Shown: positions 3,006 to 16,575 of the stretch, in pieces | How positions within the stretch are numbered: position 1 is the stretch's first letter | Layout: each line of letters begins with the position of its first letter | Origin: Methanocaldococcus jannaschii DSM 2661 | Lineage (GTDB): Archaea > AGJL01 > Methanococci > Methanococcales > Methanocaldococcaceae | Direction of reading: 5' to 3' | DNA length: 32,000 nucleotides | NCBI RefSeq assembly: GCF_000091665.1 | Contig: NC_001732.1 | Span: 22,128 to 54,127 of the forward strand | Notes under the pieces: generated by a model | What the model was told of the DNA's origin: nothing | Databases searched by the model: none | Seen by the model: only the letters and a program-made list of their open reading frames with translations | Translations under genes and position numbers: made by a program

Positions 3006-5489
3006 TCATAATACTTGTTTGATTTTTTGTATTATTGAGTAGTTTTTAATTATATTGAAATCAAGGGCATAAACATGTCCTCTTTTACATCCTGATATTA
3101 CAATATTGTCTTTGATGGACAAATCTAACACTGCACTTTCTGTTTTAAACTTCCATATTTCCTCACCAGTGTTAATATCAAGAGCATAAAGATAATTATC
3201 ACATCCTAATAATACAGCATCATTTTTAATAGACAAACCATTCACATCCCCATCTGTCTTAAATGCCCATAAATTCTCCCCTGCATTAATATCAAGAGCA
3301 TAGACACATTCTCGATTACATCCCAATATTACAATATCATCTTTAATAGATAATCTTAATACAGACCCTACTACCTTAAATCTTTCCATCTTCTCTCCTG
3401 TATTAATATCAAGAAGATAAACATAACCTCCCCTACATCCCAACAATACATTATCCTTTTTAATAGATAAACTCTTTACCTCTCCTTCTGCCTTAAACCT
3501 CCATAGTTCTCTACCAGTGTCAATATCAAGAGCGTAAAGATAATTATCACATCCAAATAGCAAAATGTCATTTTTTATGGATAAATTCCGTATGGATTTT
3601 CCTGATTTTGCTTTAAACTCCCATAACATATTTCCTGCATTAATATCAAGGGCAAGTATATATCCTTTTTTACATCCCAACACAACAATATCGTCTTTAA
3701 TAGATAAACTCCTTACATCATGCTTTATCTTAGACCTCCATATTTCTCTTCCTGTATTAATATCAAGAGCATAAGCATACCCTTCCTCCAATATTTTTCC
3801 ATTTTTCAACATGACAATGCTCTCAAATATATTTCCACATCCTAATACAACAATATCATCTTTAATAGACAAACCCCATACTGTATCCTCTGCCTTGAAT
3901 TCCCATAATTTCTTACCAGTTTTAATATCAATGGCATAAACATGTCCCGAAACACATCCTAATATTACAATATCACCTTTAATAGATAATAACCTTACAC
4001 CCCCCTCTGCCCTAAACTCCCACAATAACTCATCTACTCTTTTAATCCCTAAAATATCCAATATAAACTTACCAACATTAATTGCTAACTCATCATTTGA
4101 GTTATTTACCAATTCAATTAACTTATTCATATAATAATTAAATACAGCCCTATTTTCATTGAAAATGTTTTTAAATCTGCTGTATATTTCTTTATAGTTT
4201 GATGTGTTTAAATTATCTATCTCTTGTTTTAGGATTTTGTCAATTTTTTCTGGCCTCATGTCATCTACATTATCTCCTTTAAATTTTGTAATTGTTAATA
4301 CTTCTGTAAATCTTTCTTTGTATCGTATGTTAAATTCATCTTCAAACTCTACAACAATATCTATCGGTAGTTTTCCTTTAACTTTTGGATTTATAAAAAG
4401 GTTAATGACTTTTGTGTCTCTTCCTCTAATTTTTATCGGCTCTATGTCTTTAAATAAAATATCTTCTTCGTTTATTATTGAAATTTTCGATATTGTTATA
4501 TCTTTTAATGATTTGTTTGTTATTTGTATTGGTAGTTCATCCCATTCATTCAAATTAAGTGATTTTTTTAATAGGGTTAAATCTATCTTTACTATTTCTT
4601 TCATTATATTAGTTAGTTGTGGCCTAACTCTTTGTATTTTTGAATACAGGTTAGTATCAAGGGCATAGACACACCCCCACATGTCTGCCAATATAGTAAC
4701 ATCCCCACTTATCAATAAATCACTTACATGCCACTCTCCACCAAACTCTAATATTTTCTCACCTGTTTTAATATCAAGGACATAAAAATATTCACACCCA
4801 TATTCATCCTCACATCTCAATATTATTTTATCATCTTTGATAGATAACTCCCATACACACCACTCTGCTTCAAACTCCCACAATTTACCTCCTGTCCTAA
4901 CATCAATAGCATAAATGTATTTATCCCCATCACCCAATATAACAATATTATCTTTGAGAGAAAAACCCCACATACGCTCTCCTACCTTGGACTCCCATAT
5001 TTTATCCCCAGTCATAACATCAAGAACGCAAACATGCCCACCTCTATATTCCAACATTACAATATTATCTTTGATGAATAAACTATCTACATTGTGCTCT
5101 ACTTTATATTCCCATATTTTATTCCCTGTCTTAATATCAAGGGCAAAAAGATGGTTACTACACCCTAATATTATAATATTATCTTTGATATCTTTGATGG
5201 ACAAATCCCATACACTCCCCCCTGCCTTAAACTCCCATATTATGCTATCTTTTAAAATACATAACATAAACTTATCAATTTCAAGTGATAACTCATTATC
5301 ATCTAAATTTTTCATTAACTCAATTAATTTATCCACGTAATAATTAAATATATCTCTATTTTTGCTAAAAACATTTTTAAATTTGTCATATATTTCTTTA
5401 TAGTTTGATACGTTTAAATTATCTATCTCTTGTCTAATGTTTTCAACTCCATTGATTTTATTTTCTACAAAAACCATTCTCATCACCAA
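3006..5489 (-). CDS. Two-module PQQ-like (BamB-like) beta-propeller repeat protein
   Basis: 827-aa ORF. The track start is TTG; the ATG at 5477 follows GGTGAT plus 4 nt and is more likely. It has 13 units of a ~40-aa blade ('Y-A-L-D-I-x-T-G-x-x-h-W-x-F-K ... L-S-I-K-D-x-I-V-h-L-G-C') in blocks of 5 (aa ~75-285) and 8 (aa ~480-815). Each block follows a homologous helical leader ('EIDNLN[VT]SNYKEIY..FKN.F..NR..FNYY..KLIEL'). The blocks are separated by a ~120-aa non-repeat domain. I saw no N-terminal signal peptide. Confidence 0.85.
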   Translation of the reverse strand: MVMRMVFVENKINGVENIRQEIDNLNVSNYKEIYDKFKNVFSKNRDIFNYYVDKLIELMKNLDDNELSLEIDKFMLCILKDSIIWEFKAGGSVWDLSIKDIKDNIIILGCSNHLFALDIKTGNKIWEYKVEHNVDSLFIKDNIVMLEYRGGHVCVLDVMTGDKIWESKVGERMWGFSLKDNIVILGDGDKYIYAIDVRTGGKLWEFEAEWCVWELSIKDDKIILRCEDEYGCEYFYVLDIKTGEKILEFGGEWHVSDLLISGDVTILADMWGCVYALDTNLYSKIQRVRPQLTNIMKEIVKIDLTLLKKSLNLNEWDELPIQITNKSLKDITISKISIINEEDILFKDIEPIKIRGRDTKVINLFINPKVKGKLPIDIVVEFEDEFNIRYKERFTEVLTITKFKGDNVDDMRPEKIDKILKQEIDNLNTSNYKEIYSRFKNIFNENRAVFNYYMNKLIELVNNSNDELAINVGKFILDILGIKRVDELLWEFRAEGGVRLLSIKGDIVILGCVSGHVYAIDIKTGKKLWEFKAEDTVWGLSIKDDIVVLGCGNIFESIVMLKNGKILEEGYAYALDINTGREIWRSKIKHDVRSLSIKDDIVVLGCKKGYILALDINAGNMLWEFKAKSGKSIRNLSIKNDILLFGCDNYLYALDIDTGRELWRFKAEGEVKSLSIKKDNVLLGCRGGYVYLLDINTGEKMERFKVVGSVLRLSIKDDIVILGCNRECVYALDINAGENLWAFKTDGDVNGLSIKNDAVLLGCDNYLYALDINTGEEIWKFKTESAVLDLSIKDNIVISGCKRGHVYALDFNIIKNYSIIQKIKQVL
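4131..4231. repeat. Internal direct repeat, copy A (leader of propeller module 2)
   Basis: The ~100-nt stretch 'ataataattaaatacagccctattttcattgaaaatgtttttaaatctgctgtatatttctttatagtttgatgtgtttaaattatctatctcttgtttta' aligns base-for-base, with scattered substitutions, to 5337-5437. Confidence 0.85.
5337..5437. repeat. Internal direct repeat, copy B (leader of propeller module 1)
   Basis: 'cgtaataattaaatatatctctatttttgctaaaaacatttttaaatttgtcatatatttctttatagtttgatacgtttaaattatctatctcttgtcta' is the nucleotide-level duplicate of 4131-4231, about 1.2 kb away within the same ORF. Confidence 0.85.
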
Positions 5490-8440: not shown

Positions 8441-8929
8441 CTAAAGCTTCTCCAAATCCAATGGAACATATTTTACAATATAAGCCTTATTTACAATAAC
8501 AACATCTCCCTTTCCAACATCAACCAAGACAGTATAAGGGTCCTTACAACAGCATTTGCCCTCCAACACTTCACCATTAGCCAAATGCAACCTAACCTTA
8601 TGATTATGGCAAAAGAATAAAACATAATCTTTTCTCTCTTGAGTACTAACACACGTTTCCCTAACCCTCTTTGGCTGCTTTTTACCTTTGCCCTGTTTTT
8701 TCTGGCCAGTTTGTTTTTTACCATTATTTTTAGATTTTTGACTTTCCAACTTTTTAAGCTCTTTTTCAATCTCTTCTAAATGCTTACTTTTAACGTGTTT
8801 CCTAACAACCTTAGCATCAGCATTAGTATAATCACAAAAAGGACATTTATAAAAACCAATATCATTCTTTTGAAGCTCTAACTTCTCAACATACTCATCA
8901 ACATTCACAATCTCACCTAGAATATCCAA
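8441..8929 (-). CDS. C2H2 zinc-finger / Lys-rich linker / Sm(Hfq)-like domain fusion protein
   Basis: 162-aa ORF with no in-frame ATG. The start is TTG 8929 or GTG 8908 (the latter preceded by GGTGAG). The N-terminal 'YKCPFCDYTNADAKVVRKHVKSKH' has C-x2-C...H-x4-H spacing. The linker is basic: 'KSKNNGKKQTGQKKQGKGKKQPKR'. The C-terminal 'KVRLHLANGEVLEGKCCCKDPYTVLVDVGKGDVVIVNKAYIVKYV' follows the Sm1/Sm2 pattern of Hfq/Sm proteins (h-x-h-x-L-x-N-G-x-x-L-x-G ... D-x-[FY]-x-h-L-h ... h-x-K-x-A-[IY]). Confidence 0.65.
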   Translation of the reverse strand: MDILGEIVNVDEYVEKLELQKNDIGFYKCPFCDYTNADAKVVRKHVKSKHLEEIEKELKKLESQKSKNNGKKQTGQKKQGKGKKQPKRVRETCVSTQERKDYVLFFCHNHKVRLHLANGEVLEGKCCCKDPYTVLVDVGKGDVVIVNKAYIVKYVPLDLEKL

Positions 8930-9403
8930 AATTTGAAAAATAGCAAAATGTCAAATGCAATGTATTCCCCCATACTATCAATATGTAAAGTAATCCATAT
9001 TTAAAACTATCCTAAGCCTAGTAACAAACACAAAGAATGCAAATAAAAAGAAAAGATGAAAAATGTGACATTTAGCACATTAAATGCCATTGTTATAAAA
9101 TAAACAAAGACAAAACTTTCCTCCCTAGCAATTTTGAGTTAAGAGAGACAACCAACCTGCAGCAATTTTTGAGAATTTTAGTAAAGGGAATTATCCCTTA
9201 CATAATACACGCAAAAAGTGCAATCTTGTTGCGGAAATTCATTCTTACTTTTAAATTTATTATCTATTTGTTTGCATAAGATTTAAATGTATTGTTATAT
9301 CTATTAATTTTTGCTAATGTTTATTAATAAAATATTTAAATATATTGATTAATATTATAAAACTCTTAAAATTCATCATCACTTTTTTGTATTGTTGTTT
9401 TAA

Positions 9404-12400
9404 TTAGGTAATCCGCAGCAATCCAGGTTTTGGCTCGTATATTACCCCCAACTTTTTCAACTTTTCTAATGCTTTATAGAATACTTCTTCAACAAACTTC
9501 AATTTTTCAACAATTAGTTCATATAATTCCATTTCTAATATTTCCCCTCCATTTTCTTCAATTTTCTTTTCAATAACTTTTTCACACTTTTCAACACTGT
9601 TAGAGTTAATATTTTGTTTTATAATCTCATATAGCGTTTTAAACTCTTTGTTAAGTTCTTTTATTTCAACTACTGCATTTTCCCCCAGTTTTTTTACTCC
9701 TCTAATTACACAATTAAATATTGCTCTTATCAATCTTCTAACTTCATCCAAGGTTAGAGTGAATCCACATTCTTCTTTTATAACCTCTATTAATTCTCTA
9801 ATTTTGAATTTTTGTCTTTCAATGGCAAAATCTCTAACTTTTATTAACACTTTTGCAACTAATGACCTTAACCCTAACTTTCTCCTATCTAATCTCTCAT
9901 CATCTTCTCCTACTACAATATTCCATACTGCTCTTATAATCCTTTGAATCTTACCCCATTTTGATGGAGGGCATAAGAATGTTTTTAGAATTAGCTCTTC
10001 TATAATTCTTGCCAATGTTGAGAGTTTATCCTTATGTTCCTCTAACAATTTCAAATCAATATGGTAAATTTTCTTTGTTTTTCTATCTTCATTTTCATTA
10101 ATTTCTTTAACAATTTTCTTATACTCGTTAATTTCTTCTAAGCATTTTTTAATAGTATTTTCATCTAAGTTCGATTTTTTATCATCATCTTTTCCTTTAT
10201 TCAACATTAGGTTATACACTTCTATAACTTCTGGAATATTATAAACATCTTTTAACACGTTTATACTCCTGTTAATCCTTTTTGAGTGTTTTTTTATTAA
10301 TTGTGGAGTGTATTCATCCCTACAATCTTTAAATTTCTTATAATTATTATATTCCAAGGCATTTTTGATTTCATTCACTCCATATTCTTTAAATGCAATA
10401 ATTATATGTTTTGCACTAACTTTTTCAAGATATTCGAGATAATTATATTTTAAGAACTTATCCAGCTTACTTTCTTTTAACTCTTTTATTGTTTTAATTG
10501 CAAACTCATAGCCAGTAGTTTTTTCTAAATACTCTTTTAGTAATTTATAATCTCTTGTAATATGGGCCTCTAATAGACTATTATAAATGTGTGCTATTTC
10601 ATCTTCATCTAAAACCCAATCCTTCTTTTCCTCATCATAATATATTGCATTTTGAATTTGAGAAATCAACACTTTCTTATAATTTTTATCCAATTCTTTT
10701 AAAACTTCAATATCCGTTTCTAAATACTCTTTTAATAGTTTATAATTTTCCTTAAACATTTCAATCATTGCATTATAATCAATAATCATTGGCTCTTCTT
10801 CTCTTTCTTTAAAAGGTGCTGTGACAATTAACTCTCCCCCACCATTCCTACATCTGGCAATAAACTGTCTAATGGTGGTAGCACTCTTACAATACAATGC
10901 CCATACCAAATCAACATGATTTTTAATATTAACTCCCTCAGAAATGACTCTTGTGGCTAAAATTAACCCCTCTTCTGGTACTTTTTCTTCATTAATAATC
11001 ATTTTACTTGCCTTGTCAATTCCAACAGTCTCTCTTGTTATAACGTAAATTGGCTTGTTAAAACCATACAATTCTAAAGTATATTTTATATTCTCAATCA
11101 TTTTCTTATTATCAACTAAAACTACAGCATTTTTTATCCATCCCTGTCTAAACATTAGTAGGATGTATTCACAAAACTCTCCAATAATATTTTTTGCAAT
11201 ATGGATAGAACATCTTTCAAATAATTTTTTCTCATCTTTAAATTCCACTTCTATAACTGGATAGTTATTCAAATTAATTAACTCTGGAGTTGCAGTTAGT
11301 AAGACACAACCTCCAGCCCTGTCTATACACTTTTTTACCCCTGTTATTGCCCTTTTTCTAAACTCTTTTTGGATTACTAAATCATGTGCTTCATCTATTG
11401 CCAATAGAATATCCTCTTCATTAGCAACTTGAATTTTCTCCCCTTTATAAGTGTCATAACATAAATCATTAAGCATATTTTCAACTTGGTCGTAGGTCCC
11501 AATGGTCAAATAATGAATAGTATTCTTATCCAATTTTTTCCCATCTTCATAATACATTGGAACTACTACTCCATCAGCGTGTAATCCTGCCCCTACTTGT
11601 AAAACTTGTATTTTATATGGGAATGCCACTGCTATAGCATGTTTTTTAAATACCTCTTTAATTTCTCTTGTATTTCTTGTTAGAGTATAAGTTTTCCCCC
11701 TTCCAGTGTCTGCTTTAAGAAATACTGGAACTCCTTGTTCAATAGATAATTGGTATGCTTTTATTATAGCCTCTTTTGGTAAGTATCCTTCTGCTTCTAT
11801 CTTTATTGTTTCTCTATCGAGTAGTTCATTCATTATCTCTCTAACAGTCCTATAAGTGGATGGCTTTGGATTAATATTGTGTAATTTTAAAAATTCTATT
11901 ATTTTATCCCTAAATTCTTTAATCATCCATAATCCTGCTAATGCAATAAATCTCATATTTGGATCGTGGAAATCTACCATTACTGCATTATATCCCTCAT
12001 TAATGTAAATAGAACAGTCAGGATTTTTCCCATCATCAAAGAATAAACTCCATAAGTCTAATCTGGTTCCATTTTTACCATATTTATAATCAATTCCCAA
12101 GTAGGAGAGGAGTTTTTCAATCCATCTTTTACCCAATTTTTTAGTTAATTTATCTTGTATAGTATATAACCATTTGTAAATTCTTTTATTTATATCTTGC
12201 AATATAGTTTTATTAAGATTTGGTTTTTTTATTAATCTATTAATTGTTGTGGTAATGTTGTTTAATCCTCGCTTATTGTATAATTCTTCTCTTTTTTCAT
12301 TGAATAATACTTCAAATTCTTTATAATTTTCAATAATTCCAAACTTCTCATACAATATTATTGGAGTTAACAATTTTTCAATATCTTCTTCATCTGTCAA

Positions 12401-13222
12401 CTGGGCTATTGTAACACATGGTCTTGGACTACCATATTTTTCCTTATAATTGTAAGTTCCTACCAGCCTATCAACTCTTGCCAAATCATACATTGCAATA
12501 TCTGCCCCTAAATCTTCAGCAATCATTCTTAGTAGTATTAATTCTTCTTCTAAAATAGGTCTTTCAGGATATAATATGAATCTTAATCCTCCCCCAGTAA
12601 ATGCCACTTTATGTGGAAGTATATCCTTCTCTACGAATTTTGATAAATATTTAATCAATTTTTCCATAATTTCTTCTTCTGTAGGCATTTTGTTTGTCTT
12701 CCACTCTTCAACGTCAAAATCAAATGCAATATAACTCCAAGCAGTGGCAGCTCCCGCATCCCCTCTTTTTTCCTTTCTTGGGGCAATTCCGACATAAACC
12801 CCATCTAATCTTCTTTTCTTTTGTTTTTTAATATACTCATACTGTTTTTTTATTAATTTTATGATTTCTTCAGTTTTTTCTAAAATATTATCAACGTGTA
12901 AATCTGAAATATCTATGAAAAATTGTTTTTTACCCTTAAATTTTCCTAAAAATCTAATTTCTAAATACTTAAACTGTTTTACTAATTTTTTCAAAATTTT
13001 TTCTAAATGAGTTTCTCCAAGATATACTGAAAATTCTTCTTTATGTTTGACAATCAAAAATAGCAACTGTGCAATGTGTAATTTTAAATCAGATTCTAAA
13101 ATATCATCTGAGATATTGTAAATTCCACTAACATTTATTTGATACTTATCAAAAATAGCTTTTACAGTTTGATCATCCCAATACCGCAAACTTTTTATAC
13201 TATTAGATAGTATATTATTCAT
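9404..13222 (-). CDS. Replication protein: N-terminal archaeo-eukaryotic primase (prim-pol-like) domain fused to an SF2 DEAH helicase, with a C-terminal winged-helix-like tail
   Basis: 1272 aa with an AGGTGA RBS 7 nt before ATG 13222. AEP motifs: 'YIAFDFDVEEW' (DxD, aa ~165-174), 'VAFTGGGLRFILY' (sGxG, aa ~206-218) and 'RVDRLVGTYNYK' (R-h-x-G-T-x-N-x-K, aa ~249-260). Helicase motifs: I 'KADTGRGKTYT' (~504-513), II 'LLAIDEAHDL' (~606-615), III 'LLTATP', V 'ATRVISEGVNI' and VI 'QFIARCRNGGG'. The C-terminus 'ALEKLKKLGVIYEPKPGLLRIT' looks like a wHTH wing. Confidence 0.8.
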   Translation of the reverse strand: MNNILSNSIKSLRYWDDQTVKAIFDKYQINVSGIYNISDDILESDLKLHIAQLLFLIVKHKEEFSVYLGETHLEKILKKLVKQFKYLEIRFLGKFKGKKQFFIDISDLHVDNILEKTEEIIKLIKKQYEYIKKQKKRRLDGVYVGIAPRKEKRGDAGAATAWSYIAFDFDVEEWKTNKMPTEEEIMEKLIKYLSKFVEKDILPHKVAFTGGGLRFILYPERPILEEELILLRMIAEDLGADIAMYDLARVDRLVGTYNYKEKYGSPRPCVTIAQLTDEEDIEKLLTPIILYEKFGIIENYKEFEVLFNEKREELYNKRGLNNITTTINRLIKKPNLNKTILQDINKRIYKWLYTIQDKLTKKLGKRWIEKLLSYLGIDYKYGKNGTRLDLWSLFFDDGKNPDCSIYINEGYNAVMVDFHDPNMRFIALAGLWMIKEFRDKIIEFLKLHNINPKPSTYRTVREIMNELLDRETIKIEAEGYLPKEAIIKAYQLSIEQGVPVFLKADTGRGKTYTLTRNTREIKEVFKKHAIAVAFPYKIQVLQVGAGLHADGVVVPMYYEDGKKLDKNTIHYLTIGTYDQVENMLNDLCYDTYKGEKIQVANEEDILLAIDEAHDLVIQKEFRKRAITGVKKCIDRAGGCVLLTATPELINLNNYPVIEVEFKDEKKLFERCSIHIAKNIIGEFCEYILLMFRQGWIKNAVVLVDNKKMIENIKYTLELYGFNKPIYVITRETVGIDKASKMIINEEKVPEEGLILATRVISEGVNIKNHVDLVWALYCKSATTIRQFIARCRNGGGELIVTAPFKEREEEPMIIDYNAMIEMFKENYKLLKEYLETDIEVLKELDKNYKKVLISQIQNAIYYDEEKKDWVLDEDEIAHIYNSLLEAHITRDYKLLKEYLEKTTGYEFAIKTIKELKESKLDKFLKYNYLEYLEKVSAKHIIIAFKEYGVNEIKNALEYNNYKKFKDCRDEYTPQLIKKHSKRINRSINVLKDVYNIPEVIEVYNLMLNKGKDDDKKSNLDENTIKKCLEEINEYKKIVKEINENEDRKTKKIYHIDLKLLEEHKDKLSTLARIIEELILKTFLCPPSKWGKIQRIIRAVWNIVVGEDDERLDRRKLGLRSLVAKVLIKVRDFAIERQKFKIRELIEVIKEECGFTLTLDEVRRLIRAIFNCVIRGVKKLGENAVVEIKELNKEFKTLYEIIKQNINSNSVEKCEKVIEKKIEENGGEILEMELYELIVEKLKFVEEVFYKALEKLKKLGVIYEPKPGLLRIT

Positions 13223-13265
13223 TGGTCACTCACCTTACTGTGGGTAGTATATATTCATTGGTCAC
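13208..13265. repeat. 21-22-nt direct repeat spanning the rep gene start codon and its upstream region
   Basis: TAGTATATTATTCATTGGTCAC (13208-13229, which contains start codon 13220-13222) is repeated as TAGTATATATTCATTGGTCAC (13245-13265). A third partial copy, 'cttggtcat', is at ~13270. Confidence 0.75.
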
Positions 13266-13434
13266 ATCTCTTGGTCATACACCTCGACCATGCCTACACT
13301 AAATACTCCCTAATGTTGCAATACCTTAACATATAATGCAATACAATACTGAGCTCTTTTGATACAATCTATGTAATTTAAAGAGTATAAGAAACATTTT
13401 CAGGGGGCGACCATTTCTATATTATTTTTTGAAG

Positions 13435-13604
13435 TATATAAACTTTTAGTTATTTTTTGAATTTGTATATTTGGATTTATATCATATAACTTTTTCTGAA
13501 AATTTTTCCTGACATATCTATTAGGTAGTTAGTATATATATATTTTTCGGATTTTTGCATGTTTTTACACTTTATCTTCTAATTTTATAACTAAAAGTTT
13601 ATAT
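13435..13604. repeat. 18-bp inverted repeat pair flanking a ~130-bp AT-rich spacer (replication-origin candidate)
   Basis: TATATAAACTTTTAGTTAT (13435-13453) is matched by ATAACTAAAAGTTTATAT (13587-13604), which is the reverse complement over 18 nt. It lies in the ~860-bp ORF-free region immediately upstream of the primase-helicase gene. Confidence 0.5.
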
Positions 13605-13982
13605 TTTTCAAATAAAAAGGTTTATATACTATGAAATCATAGTATTGCTTGATTACAAAATTATTTTTTTGATAATAATGCCTATTTTTTCTTAATTCGT
13701 TGTGTGGTTGATAAAATTGTTAGCAGCATTTATGTTTTATATTTTAAAAAGAAAAGCATTAAATCTACATTTATTGTTATTATCTTATTTTTTGTGTCTT
13801 TTTTATCTTCTGTAAACTCTTATAAATCTCTTATATAGTATTATAATTATTCTATAAAAATATGTGGATTAAGTTGGGTAAGAAAAATGTGCGAAATAGG
13901 GGCTAAAATAATATTAAAACATTAATGTCTTTTGTCTAGTGTTACATTTTTAGTTACGTCTTTAACCACTTTTATTAGTACA

Positions 13983-14008: not shown

Positions 14009-14089
14009 AAAAGAGACATTCTATATATATAATTTACTTATAATTATATTCAAAAATAGTGTTATAATAAACAAATGGATAAAATGGGC

Positions 14090-14293
14090 TTATTTCTTTA
14101 AAGCTAATTTTATATCTTCAACTTTTACTGTTTTTCTCTTTGCGTGCTTAGCTAAATCAACTGCTTCCTTAGCAATTTCTAATGCAATTTCTTCAAATGC
14201 CTCTGCTAAGTATTCTGCTGCAGCCCTACTAACTCTTTCAGCTCCAACTTTTTTCAAGATTCTCTCAAATGGTGCAACTGGAAGCTCAGTCAC
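14090..14293 (-). CDS. Archaeal histone (HMf/HMt family, single histone fold)
   Basis: 67 aa: '[66 protein letters not shown]'. This is the canonical archaeal histone pattern (ELP-h-AP...RVS..A......E......A...A.HA.RKTV...DI.LA). It has a GTG start with GAGG 7 nt upstream. Confidence 0.95.
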
Positions 14294-14305
14294 AACACTA
14301 CCTCT

Positions 14306-14329
14306 TTGTATATGTAGAGTGTAGAAGCT
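14306..14329. repeat. Conserved 24-nt box, copy 1 (abuts the histone RBS)
   Basis: TTGTATATGTAGAGTGTAGAAGCT compared with TTGTGTATGTAGAGTGCAGAAACT at 19614-19637. Both are in the same orientation and 21/24 positions are identical. Confidence 0.75.
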
Positions 14330-14410
14330 CTAATAACCTACAAAGTGGGAGTTCAAATTTGCTAAACTTTAAGCTCCCTTAATGGAAACTCGAAACTAAA
14401 ATAAGTAAAA

Positions 14411-14505
14411 CCATAATACAATAATACAATCATTCAATAATATCATAAAATCATAATTTAGTAATGCAATAATCCAATAACTCCACAATAACATAATAAA
14501 ATAAC
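14411..14505. repeat. Array of degenerate ~8-bp units (CAATAATA)
   Basis: Units start at 14412, 14419, 14427, 14435, 14444 and 14452: 'CATAATA|CAATAATA|CAATCATT|CAATAATAT|CATAAAAT|CATAATTT'. The array continues with 'gcaataat ccaataac .. cacaataa cataataa'. Confidence 0.7.
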
Positions 14506-14510
14506 TTTGA

Positions 14511-14533
14511 GTTTCCACTAAAAGAAATTCAAA
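14511..14533. repeat. 22-nt box TTTCCACTAAAAGAAATTCAAA, followed by GGTGGGG
   Basis: 14512-14533 is the exact reverse complement of 16469-16490 ('tttgaatttcttttagtggaaa'). Partial copies are at 5718-5734 ('ggtttcactaaaagaag') and 23033-23050 ('ccatttccactaaaataa'). Confidence 0.8.
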
Positions 14534-14556
14534 GGTGGGGTTAATAAATTTCTTAT

Positions 14557-14582
14557 ATGAATTGACTTCAAAGTCAATTCAC
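14557..14582. repeat. Palindromic element, copy 3
   Basis: ATGAATTGACTT-CA-AAGTCAATTCAC, with 11-bp perfect arms. The centre CA is the reverse complement of the TG centre in copies 2 and 6. Confidence 0.9.
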
Positions 14583-14640
14583 AAAAAAGAAATGTCACCC
14601 ATCACATCATAAACACATCCACCGACATACTAATCAAAAT

Positions 14641-14715
14641 TTAATTATTGAATTATTAAATTAAACAATAACATAATAACATAATTATTACATTATGTTA
14701 TTATTTAAAATAACC
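14641..14715. repeat. Short octamer-type array containing a 13-bp inverted repeat
   Basis: ATAATAACATAAT (14673-14685) and ATTATGTTATTAT (14692-14704) are reverse complements separated by 6 nt. They are embedded in 'aataacataataacataat' units. Confidence 0.6.
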
Positions 14716-16005: not shown

Positions 16006-16225
16006 TTTTTCTTATTTTTCTCCCCCTCCCTCTCGGGCTCTCCCCTCCCCCTCTTTTTAATTTTTCTATTTTAAAATTTAAATTAATATAATTATTAATT
16101 TGACAATTTGACAAGTTTTTTTATTTTTTATTATTGTTTTATTTTGATTGTATTTTTTGTTTTTGTTTGTTTTTATCCTATTTTTTTGCTTGTTTTGTTT
16201 TCTTTTGTTTTTTGTTTGATTGTAT
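16006..16225. repeat. Left copy of a ~200-bp inverted repeat (G/C-rich mirror core plus T-rich arm)
   Basis: The core CTCCCCCTCCCTCTCGGGCTCTCCCCTCCCCCTC (16020-16053) is the exact reverse complement of 23195-23228 (34/34). The inward-running T-rich part ('taatttgacaagttttt..attgttttattttgattgtattttttgttt..gttttgttt..ttgtttgatt') aligns with the reverse complement of 23045-23194, with small indels. Confidence 0.9.
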
Positions 16226-16575
16226 TTTGCATCGGTATTTTGTATTTTCTTTAGTAGGAGTTTGTATTATGTTTTTATTGTATTGTTGGATTATGTTGTC
16301 ATGTTATTATTGTATTATTTAGTTATTGTATTATAATTTGTATTTTGTATTTCCTTAATGGAGAGAGGTTATTTATTTTATTGTTTTATTGTATTATTTT
16401 ATTATGTTATTAATTAATAGTTGTATTCTTTTATTATGCAATTATGTTATTCTTATGGTGTTGTTGTGTTTGAATTTCTTTTAGTGGAAATTTGAATTAT
16501 GTTATTGTTGTATTATGTTATTGCAGTGTTATTTAATTGTTGTATTATTTTACTTTGTAATTATGTTGTTCTCGT
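16221..16575. repeat. Long array of degenerate ~8-bp units in the T-rich orientation (TATTATTG)
   Basis: 'GTATTATG|TTTTTATT|GTATTGTT|GGATTATG|TTGTCATG|TTATTATT|GTATTATT|TAGTTATT|GTATTATA' runs from 16264 onward. The array is interrupted by the dyad box 'tttccttaatggagagagg' (16350-16368) and the 22-nt box (16469-16490). Confidence 0.7.

Follow-up and report, generated by a model that had tools for sequence, protein, structure and literature searches.

The replicase of the Sulfolobus plasmid pRN1, ORF904, unites a primase-polymerase (prim-pol), a superfamily 3 (SF3) helicase and a winged helix in one polypeptide, and herpesvirus UL9 pairs a superfamily 2 (SF2) helicase with a C-terminal origin-binding domain. 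PrimQH replicases of the PrimPol-PV1 group (e.g. Prim+DUF927, Methanococcus voltae A3 provirus) are carried by mobile elements and follow a plan of primase, PriCT/Zn-binding module, NTPase/helicase and C-terminal winged helix (Kazlauskas et al. 2018; PMC5862659). A domain of archaeo-eukaryotic primase (AEP) type at the N-terminus, followed by an SF2 DEAH domain in one chain is found in IEE of E. coli O157 (Z1568-like), a protein of 786 amino acids (aa) that acts in the excision of insertion sequences and in end joining and not in replication (PMC9943667). Here we compare with these systems a gene in a 32,000-nucleotide (nt) stretch of Methanocaldococcus jannaschii DSM 2661 (hereafter the window), which corresponds to bases 22,128–54,127 of the 58,407-bp large extrachromosomal element; the other replicons of this organism are a 1,664,970-bp chromosome and a 16,550-bp extrachromosomal element. 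Both extrachromosomal elements have been known since the genome of 1996, and we found no replication protein described for them in the literature searched. A single open reading frame (ORF) on the minus strand of the window (positions 9404–13222; 1272 aa plus stop) encodes a protein in which an AEP domain and an SF2 helicase are joined, and we predict, with a probability of about 75%, that it is the replication protein (Rep) of the large element.

The overall plan of the protein appears to be the standard PrimPol-PV1/PrimQH replicase plan with an SF2 helicase in the helicase slot: the order of the modules fits the PrimQH architecture, the middle module and the winged helix being tentatively identified. 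The original prediction, made from the letters of this stretch, had proposed one 1272-aa polypeptide at this position, which is borne out by the single minus-strand frame. Judged by its homologues, the ORF is genuine and not a chance frame, because collinear proteins of 28–90% identity retain every catalytic motif; a Shine–Dalgarno-like GGTGA precedes its ATG. We infer from gene order that the gene is MJECL28 of the large element, because the flanking genes correspond to MJECL27 and MJECL29: the ZF-Hfq gene at 8441–8929 corresponds to MJECL27 (PMC2926602), and the 67-aa upstream ORF at 14090–14293 to the plasmid histone MJECL29 (PMC10516927). No mention of MJECL28 was found in the literature searched. 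A public protein collection holds a shorter call of 1094 aa (P0004; residues 179–1272) that begins at Met179, downstream of AEP motif I. Since such a call lacks motif I, searches with it would miss the primase active site, and this truncation may explain why the primase escaped notice.

The AEP primase-polymerase domain spans residues 39–295 (positions 12338–13108, minus strand), as delimited by the structure model and conserved motifs. The three AEP motifs that had been claimed for the N-terminal third (DxD, sGxG and R..G-T-x-N-x-K) are all found there: motif I is FDFD at residues 167–170 (D168, D170), motif II is TGGGLRF at 209–215, motif III is GADIAMYD at 239–246 with the acidic residue D241, and the motif IV region is RVDRLVGTYNYK at 249–260 (R249/R252-G255-T256-N258-K260), the conserved Arg-hydrophobic "motif IV" being present. 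Pfam and NCBIfam give no recognition of the residues of this domain. An exhaustive HMMER search with residues 1–480 against 1.84 billion cluster representatives returned only eight proteins, three of which are full-length relatives (P0003; P0007, 1192 aa; P0008, 1222 aa) and five more distant (E 5e-9 to 8e-4). Pfam RepB_primase matches all five distant relatives, three above the cut-off and two below, and four of the five additionally bear NrS-1 HBD, PriCT_2, or D5_N with DUF5906; fusions of this type are typical mobile-element replicases, and that they are the nearest relatives outside the family speaks for a Rep. A joint alignment with distant AEP proteins has invariant columns at D170, G210, G212, D241, R249, R252, G255, N258 and K260, with D168 almost invariant; the metal triad D168, D170 and D241 is conserved through the family and in the distant AEP relatives.

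Where motif II usually has a nucleotide-binding His, all eight family members have Arg214, so that the sequence departs from the sGxGxH pattern; in the nearest outside relatives this residue is Gln or His, the PrimQH signature. Arg or Lys at this position has been reported in the DR0530-like family only, and Gln or Tyr in others (PMC5862659); because non-His residues are on record, Arg214 lies within the known range of AEP variation. In the AlphaFold model the N-terminal domain has a mean predicted local distance difference test (pLDDT) value of 77, with values above 85 across most of residues 20–310, and it matches AEP structures only. Foldseek places RepB' (3h20) first (E 4.8e-6), followed by S-2L PrimPol, CAPP, LigD PolDom and PriS. 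VIA-align superposes residues 39–295 on the cyanophage S-2L PrimPol 6zp9 with Z 15.6 (178/185 residues; root-mean-square deviation 2.8), and gives Z 12.0 to RepB' 3h25, about 10 to PriS and Prim-PolC and about 8.5 to LigD PolDom. RepB' is also the top sequence-profile match in the PDB, aligned across the motif III/IV region. With hidden Markov model (HMM) transitivity and structure both giving AEP, the assignment predicted from relatives, invariant columns and model superpositions is secure.

The SF2 helicase core, consisting of two RecA-like domains, occupies residues 484–815 (positions 10778–11773, minus strand) according to Pfam, Foldseek and VIA-align. The original prediction had placed a full SF2 motif set (GxGKT, DEAH, TAT, QxxxRxxR-like) in the middle of the protein, and such a set is found, reading GRGKT, DEAH, TAT and QxxxRxR. 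Its elements are motif I, ADTGRGKT, at residues 504–511 (K510); motif Ia, FPYKIQV, at 534–540; motif II, DEAHD, at 610–614 (DEAH 610–613); motif III, TATPE, at 643–647; motif V, LATRVISEGVNI, at 755–766; and motif VI, QFIARCRNGG, at 786–795 (Q786, R790, R792). All six are kept in members down to 28–39% identity, and motif II is DEAH throughout the family apart from two members with DESH or DEYH. Pfam ResIII reaches 25.4 bits, above its cut-off of 22.5, with DEAD and Helicase_C below their cut-offs; relatives score higher, up to 54.8 bits for ResIII and 46–47 bits for DEAD. The model of residues 470–1272 has a mean pLDDT of 59, with 70–89 across much of the helicase core, and Foldseek gives it 467 PDB matches at E ≤ 0.001, the best 50 of which are SF2 proteins. 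VIA-align scores the core at Z 14–16 to DinG, HrpB, DEAD-box, RIG-I-like and Swi2/Snf2 proteins. No SF3, D5 or AAA+ replicase family is among the listed Pfam, PDB-sequence and structure matches to residues 470–1272. On these sequence and model comparisons the helicase is SF2 and not SF3, and the partnership on which the original prediction turned stands. An assignment to an SF2 subfamily was dropped, as DinG, DEAH/RHA, DEAD-box, RIG-I-like and Swi2/Snf2 proteins scored alike in Foldseek and VIA-align; NCBIfam and PHROGs gave RapA and DpdE fragments and phrog_2478 (E 0.016), and nothing useful.

Word-indexed and exhaustive searches together gave a family of eight proteins in three or four clusters, 1190–1272 aa long and collinear throughout. 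Relatives were found only in Methanococcales genomes and hydrothermal-vent metagenomes; among 40 genomes of the class, matches were present in five, four of which belong to the order's other family. The record "plasmid unnamed1" of Methanothermococcus sp. Ax23 (NZ_CP157523.1; 7,732 bp) repeats its first 98 bases at its end, which implies a circle of 7,634 bp. Its largest ORF, split across the ends of the deposited record, is a 1210-aa family member that takes up about half of the plasmid, and the remaining ORFs (233, 216 and 122 aa) are without replication domains. An ORF-less region of 1.7 kb on this plasmid (3994–5713) contains repeat pairs about 165 nt apart, at approximately 4207–4335 and 4371–4500.

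Four Methanococcaceae chromosomes also hold a member. The chromosomal copy of Ax23 (1186 aa) directly adjoins tRNA-Leu(TAA) and has a 320-aa tyrosine integrase immediately upstream. The same tRNA gene adjoins the rep gene in all three loci scanned (Ax23, G021, G023), and a 320-aa ORF lies directly upstream in both loci examined for it (Ax23, G021), shown to be a tyrosine integrase in one; these loci are L012 7974–12928, L013 6661–11755 and L014. The order tRNA-Leu(TAA), rep gene, integrase looks like a very compact integrated element, and no att repeat bounding the Ax23 copy was found with 14-nt seeds. The original prediction had envisaged a survey of the fusion in Methanococcales plasmids and viruses; the searches made here place it on plasmids and in probable integrated elements of this order and gave no relative among IMG/VR viral contigs. 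Searches of a bacterial plasmid collection (blastn and tblastn) gave no relative either, the sole match being an unrelated DEAD/DEAH helicase of 23% identity. We found no description of the protein family in the literature searched, and the protein most likely replicates a small group of hitherto undescribed Methanococcales plasmids and integrated elements. One member is the only large gene of a 7.6-kb plasmid and others lie between tRNA-Leu and an integrase; a replicase is therefore the most likely role. These two contexts are the strongest arguments for it, and they strengthen the replicon-design reading of the original prediction.

Integrated copies adjoining an integrase could also point to a DNA-processing enzyme, acting in excision, end joining or rearrangement of the mobile element and not in its replication, as the two-domain order of IEE (PMC9943667) is the same. 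However, neither domain showed specific similarity to IEE of the Sakai genome (BLASTP E 0.48; hhalign probability 4.8% for the AEP part and 0.6% for the helicase part). Its closest AEP relatives are of replicase type, a family member sits on a free plasmid of 7.6 kb, which must have a replicase, and IEE is without the extra middle domain and winged-helix-like tail. We therefore regard a processing role as improbable. IEE was likewise rejected as an ancestor of the fusion, and the AEP–SF2 fusion described here probably arose independently of IEE, because neither domain resembles it specifically in sequence.

The middle domain, residues 366–455 (positions 11858–12127, minus strand), is the most conserved stretch in the family: 28.9% of its columns are invariant, compared with 21.8% in the AEP domain and 3.6% in the tail (816–1180), and its identity to three distant members is 44%, compared with 38% for the AEP domain. 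PrimQH replicases carry a PriCT or zinc-binding domain at the same position (PMC5862659). The original prediction had likened residues 390–420 to a CHC2 primase zinc finger that has lost its ligands. The absence of ligands holds, as this segment has no Cys/His ligand set, and across the whole domain the only such residues are Cys403, which is Thr in P0008, and His419 and His448, which do not make up a CHC2 ligand set. The proposed CHC2 homology gained no statistical support: Pfam has no match to residues 366–455 at E ≤ 10, a six-frame genome scan with PF01807 (zf-CHC2) found nothing, hhalign against 20 DnaG N-termini gave a probability of 0.4% (a weak test, the DnaG set being shallow at 66–100% identity), and local alignment with DnaG did not rise above shuffles (z ≤ 2.6). 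Two leads favour the homology: among the language-model neighbours of the domain, 51 of the 100 nearest clusters contain primase zinc-ribbon families, at scores of 0.79–0.83 that lie below the trust level, and a cluster of 321-aa RepB_primase + Zn_ribbon_DnaG proteins superposes on model residues 36–433 (TM 0.60 by match). That the middle domain is a zinc-free primase zinc ribbon is possible, with the odds against it.

The helicase core is followed by a poorly conserved helical tail, residues 816–1180 (positions 9683–10777, minus strand), which has low pLDDT in the AF2 model; a part of about 60 residues is absent from P0007 and P0135 in the alignments, so the tail is partly dispensable. The C-terminal segment, residues 1181–1272 (positions 9407–9682, minus strand), is a candidate MCM-type winged helix on the basis of Pfam MCM_WH_arc (PF21120; E 0.029). 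This profile matches the last 60–90 residues at 15.5 bits, compared with a cut-off of 26.1. In a six-frame scan of the whole genome it found only seven places, which include this C-terminus and a 1064-aa protein of the small element; three others sit in long chromosomal frames (683–772 aa), which we take to be MCMs. Atlas clusters of WHD_MCM came at ranks 2, 4 and 5 for the C-terminus (score 0.76). A C-terminal winged helix is likely from these weak matches, and we presume the segment to be an origin-binding module. As to the helical tail of about 450 aa ending in a winged helix-turn-helix (wHTH) that had been proposed, residues 816–1272 are indeed predicted to be helical, at low confidence, and the wHTH ending is hinted at by the MCM_WH_arc match (E 0.03).

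Folds, catalytic residues, family collinearity and contexts on mobile elements come from observation; the action of the Rep, that is origin binding, helicase activity and its polarity, primer synthesis and hand-over to host factors, can be proposed from its domains and by analogy with ORF904, RepB' and UL9. The C-terminal winged-helix-like module, perhaps together with the helical tail, would recognise an origin in the adjacent repeat-rich, ORF-less DNA, and the SF2 DEAH motor would use ATP to open origin DNA or to translocate on it, which would be similar to UL9. The N-terminal AEP domain would then lay the first primer and may extend it, aided by the middle domain 366–455, before synthesis passes to host polymerases and PCNA; on the 58-kb element, the MCM encoded there may also participate. 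The strongest form of this proposal, a self-contained, origin-recognising primosome with the SF2 DEAH motor, in place of an SF3, SF4/DnaB or MCM hexamer, as replicative or origin-opening helicase of an archaeal replicon and a zinc-free descendant of a primase zinc ribbon as its most conserved part, we regard as possible but less likely than not.

What is least certain is how the SF2 domain acts, and several observations weigh against the reading of the protein as the Rep. The large element carries its own MCM, a 602-aa protein with OB, P-loop and lid domains, as well as HerA-NurA (C2 4558–7391 and 10678–12486). The element thus has two candidate replication helicases, so its fork helicase may be another than the SF2 domain and the protein may not be its sole initiator. 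IEE, although its SF2 motif set is complete, does not unwind DNA (PMC9943667). The winged-helix match falls below the Pfam threshold, the helicase-plus-tail model is of low confidence (mean pLDDT 59), and the RNA depth over the gene body, no higher than over intergenic DNA, is no proof that the gene is transcribed. The first two of these points would suit an accessory primase or restart enzyme, with MCM and host factors initiating and unwinding, the protein doing no more than providing primers or re-priming forks that have stalled, and the SF2 domain serving as a translocase that loads or stabilises the protein on DNA; in IEE, too, the SF2 domain serves to stabilise binding to DNA and not to unwind it (PMC9943667). 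Against this, neither the 7.6-kb plasmid nor the compact elements at tRNA-Leu carry an MCM or other initiator candidate besides the protein, and the winged-helix-like C-terminus and the fixed collinear architecture suit an origin-specific Rep. We consider the accessory role unlikely, if somewhat less so than a processing role of the IEE kind.

The Rep gene lies in the maintenance region of the large element, 2.4 kb from a ParA gene and adjoining the ZF-Hfq gene, a gene that is present on several archaeal plasmids (Krupovic et al.). Neither Orc1/Cdc6 nor a DNA polymerase was found among the scanned ORFs of at least 120 aa on this element. The neighbourhood in the window also includes type I restriction-modification, OLD-family nuclease, EVE and PIN genes. 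These neighbours, and the fact that ResIII-type helicases are common in defence systems, raise the idea that the protein belongs to a system of defence or plasmid competition; against this, there is no conserved partner gene in the contexts compared, no PADLOC search having been made, the neighbours of family members differ in every context, and an AEP with an intact catalytic site in small-plasmid and integrase contexts points to replication, which makes a defence role very improbable.

Upstream of the gene is a gap of 867 bp without a listed ORF of at least 60 aa. It contains a 32-nt inverted repeat (88% complementary) at positions 13422–13618, with arms at 13422–13453 and 13587–13618 and a 133-nt AT-rich spacer. 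A degenerate octamer (ATAATACA, complement TTGTATTA) forms two arrays, at 14400–14710 and 16115–16570, which are inverted relative to each other around a VapBC-like PIN module. TGTATTAT is about 3.5 times more frequent per kb on the large element than on the chromosome, and its copies are clustered at the arrays. We propose from these sequence features that the octamer arrays and the 32-nt inverted repeat form a candidate origin region.

The upstream leader with a putative promoter covers positions 13223–13443 on the minus strand, the strand and transcription start being provisionally assigned. A TATA-like TTTATATA at 13443–13436 (minus strand) would put the start of transcription near 13403–13412. 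A 14-nt direct repeat at 13216–13229 and 13252–13265 duplicates the start-codon context; its upstream copy opens a 7-codon upstream ORF, whose stop abuts the Shine–Dalgarno sequence of rep. In two small RNA libraries an assembled contig extends over 8511–13252 at modest depth (about 50–60 in the gene body). The depth at 13223–13380 in the same libraries is 10^4 to 5 × 10^4, 100- to 1000-fold above that of the gene body, with adapter junctions at 13241/13262 and 13353/13363/13403. This abundant RNA, which could come from either strand, may serve as a stable leader of rep or as an antisense regulator of copy number. Folding of the leader RNA gave no structure beyond shuffles (z +0.6), Rfam had no match to it, and the raw reads of run X6 were uninformative, with 23 over a 7-kb stretch. 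The plasmid histone region (14084–14317) has the highest local RNA depth in both libraries, about 10^5.

The small 16.5-kb element carries a split counterpart (L004 7425–11929, minus strand), in which a 1064-aa protein overlaps the start of a 441-aa protein. The former has a C-terminal wHTH (HTH_24, E 1e-5) in addition to its MCM_WH_arc match, and the latter matches DNA_primase_S above the Pfam cut-off and LigD_Prim-Pol just below it. Neither has detectable similarity to the large-element protein.

These results assign a probable replicase to the large element and define a small family that is known so far only from Methanococcales. They also show that an SF2 motor can fill the helicase slot of the primase–helicase replicase plan. 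The Methanothermococcus plasmid of 7.6 kb is a candidate minimal replicon for shuttle vectors of thermophilic methanogens. Two features, Arg in place of His in motif II and a conserved middle domain without zinc, vary AEP priming chemistry in ways that can be tested. If the protein were an SF2 primosome as outlined above, its family would be the first of such design among archaeal plasmid replicases and would offer Methanococcales genetics a compact minimal replicon of one gene and about 1.7 kb of non-coding DNA.

In comparison with known systems, the protein shares its mobile-element location and, as far as its modules are identified, its modular plan with the PrimQH replicases. It differs in having Arg214 in place of the Gln/His of motif II, a middle module without zinc ligands in place of PriCT or a Zn-binding domain, and a canonical SF2 DEAH core in the slot that is filled by RepA/DnaB, MCM, DUF927, VirE or D5 in PrimQH proteins. 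We call it PrimQH-like, and not a member, because its motif II position holds Arg, unlike the Gln or His of its closest outside relatives; as far as the available part of PMC5862659 shows, the PrimPol-PV1 lists do not include the M. jannaschii protein. With ORF904 of pRN1 (PMC4158269) it shares a layout in one polypeptide, with an AEP at the N-terminus, a helicase in the centre and a DNA-binding part, here a presumed one, at the C-terminus, but the helicase there is SF3, and the AEP domain here is nearest to the RepB'/S-2L type and not to pRN1. RepB' of RSF1010 (3h20/3h25) and S-2L PrimPol (6zp9) are the best matches among solved structures (Z 12 and Z 15.6) at 12–15% identity; RepB' is a stand-alone primase that works with a separate helicase and initiator, and neither protein is fused to an SF2 domain. 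UL9 provides a functional analogy for an SF2 motor combined with a C-terminal DNA-binding domain, and no match to Herpes_ori_bp was listed at E ≤ 1. Some All3500-family AEPs are fused to remote SF2-like domains (Prim+SF2_VOG3399-like; PMC5862659) and, as here, join an AEP to an SF2-type motor in mobile-element replicases; compared by description only, their SF2 domains are remotely SF2-like, whereas the present one matches ResIII/DEAD directly. The original prediction that an SF2 partner makes for an atypical replicon design is therefore upheld in that the design is atypical, but it is not unprecedented, since both the characterised IEE and some All3500 proteins combine an AEP with an SF2 domain.

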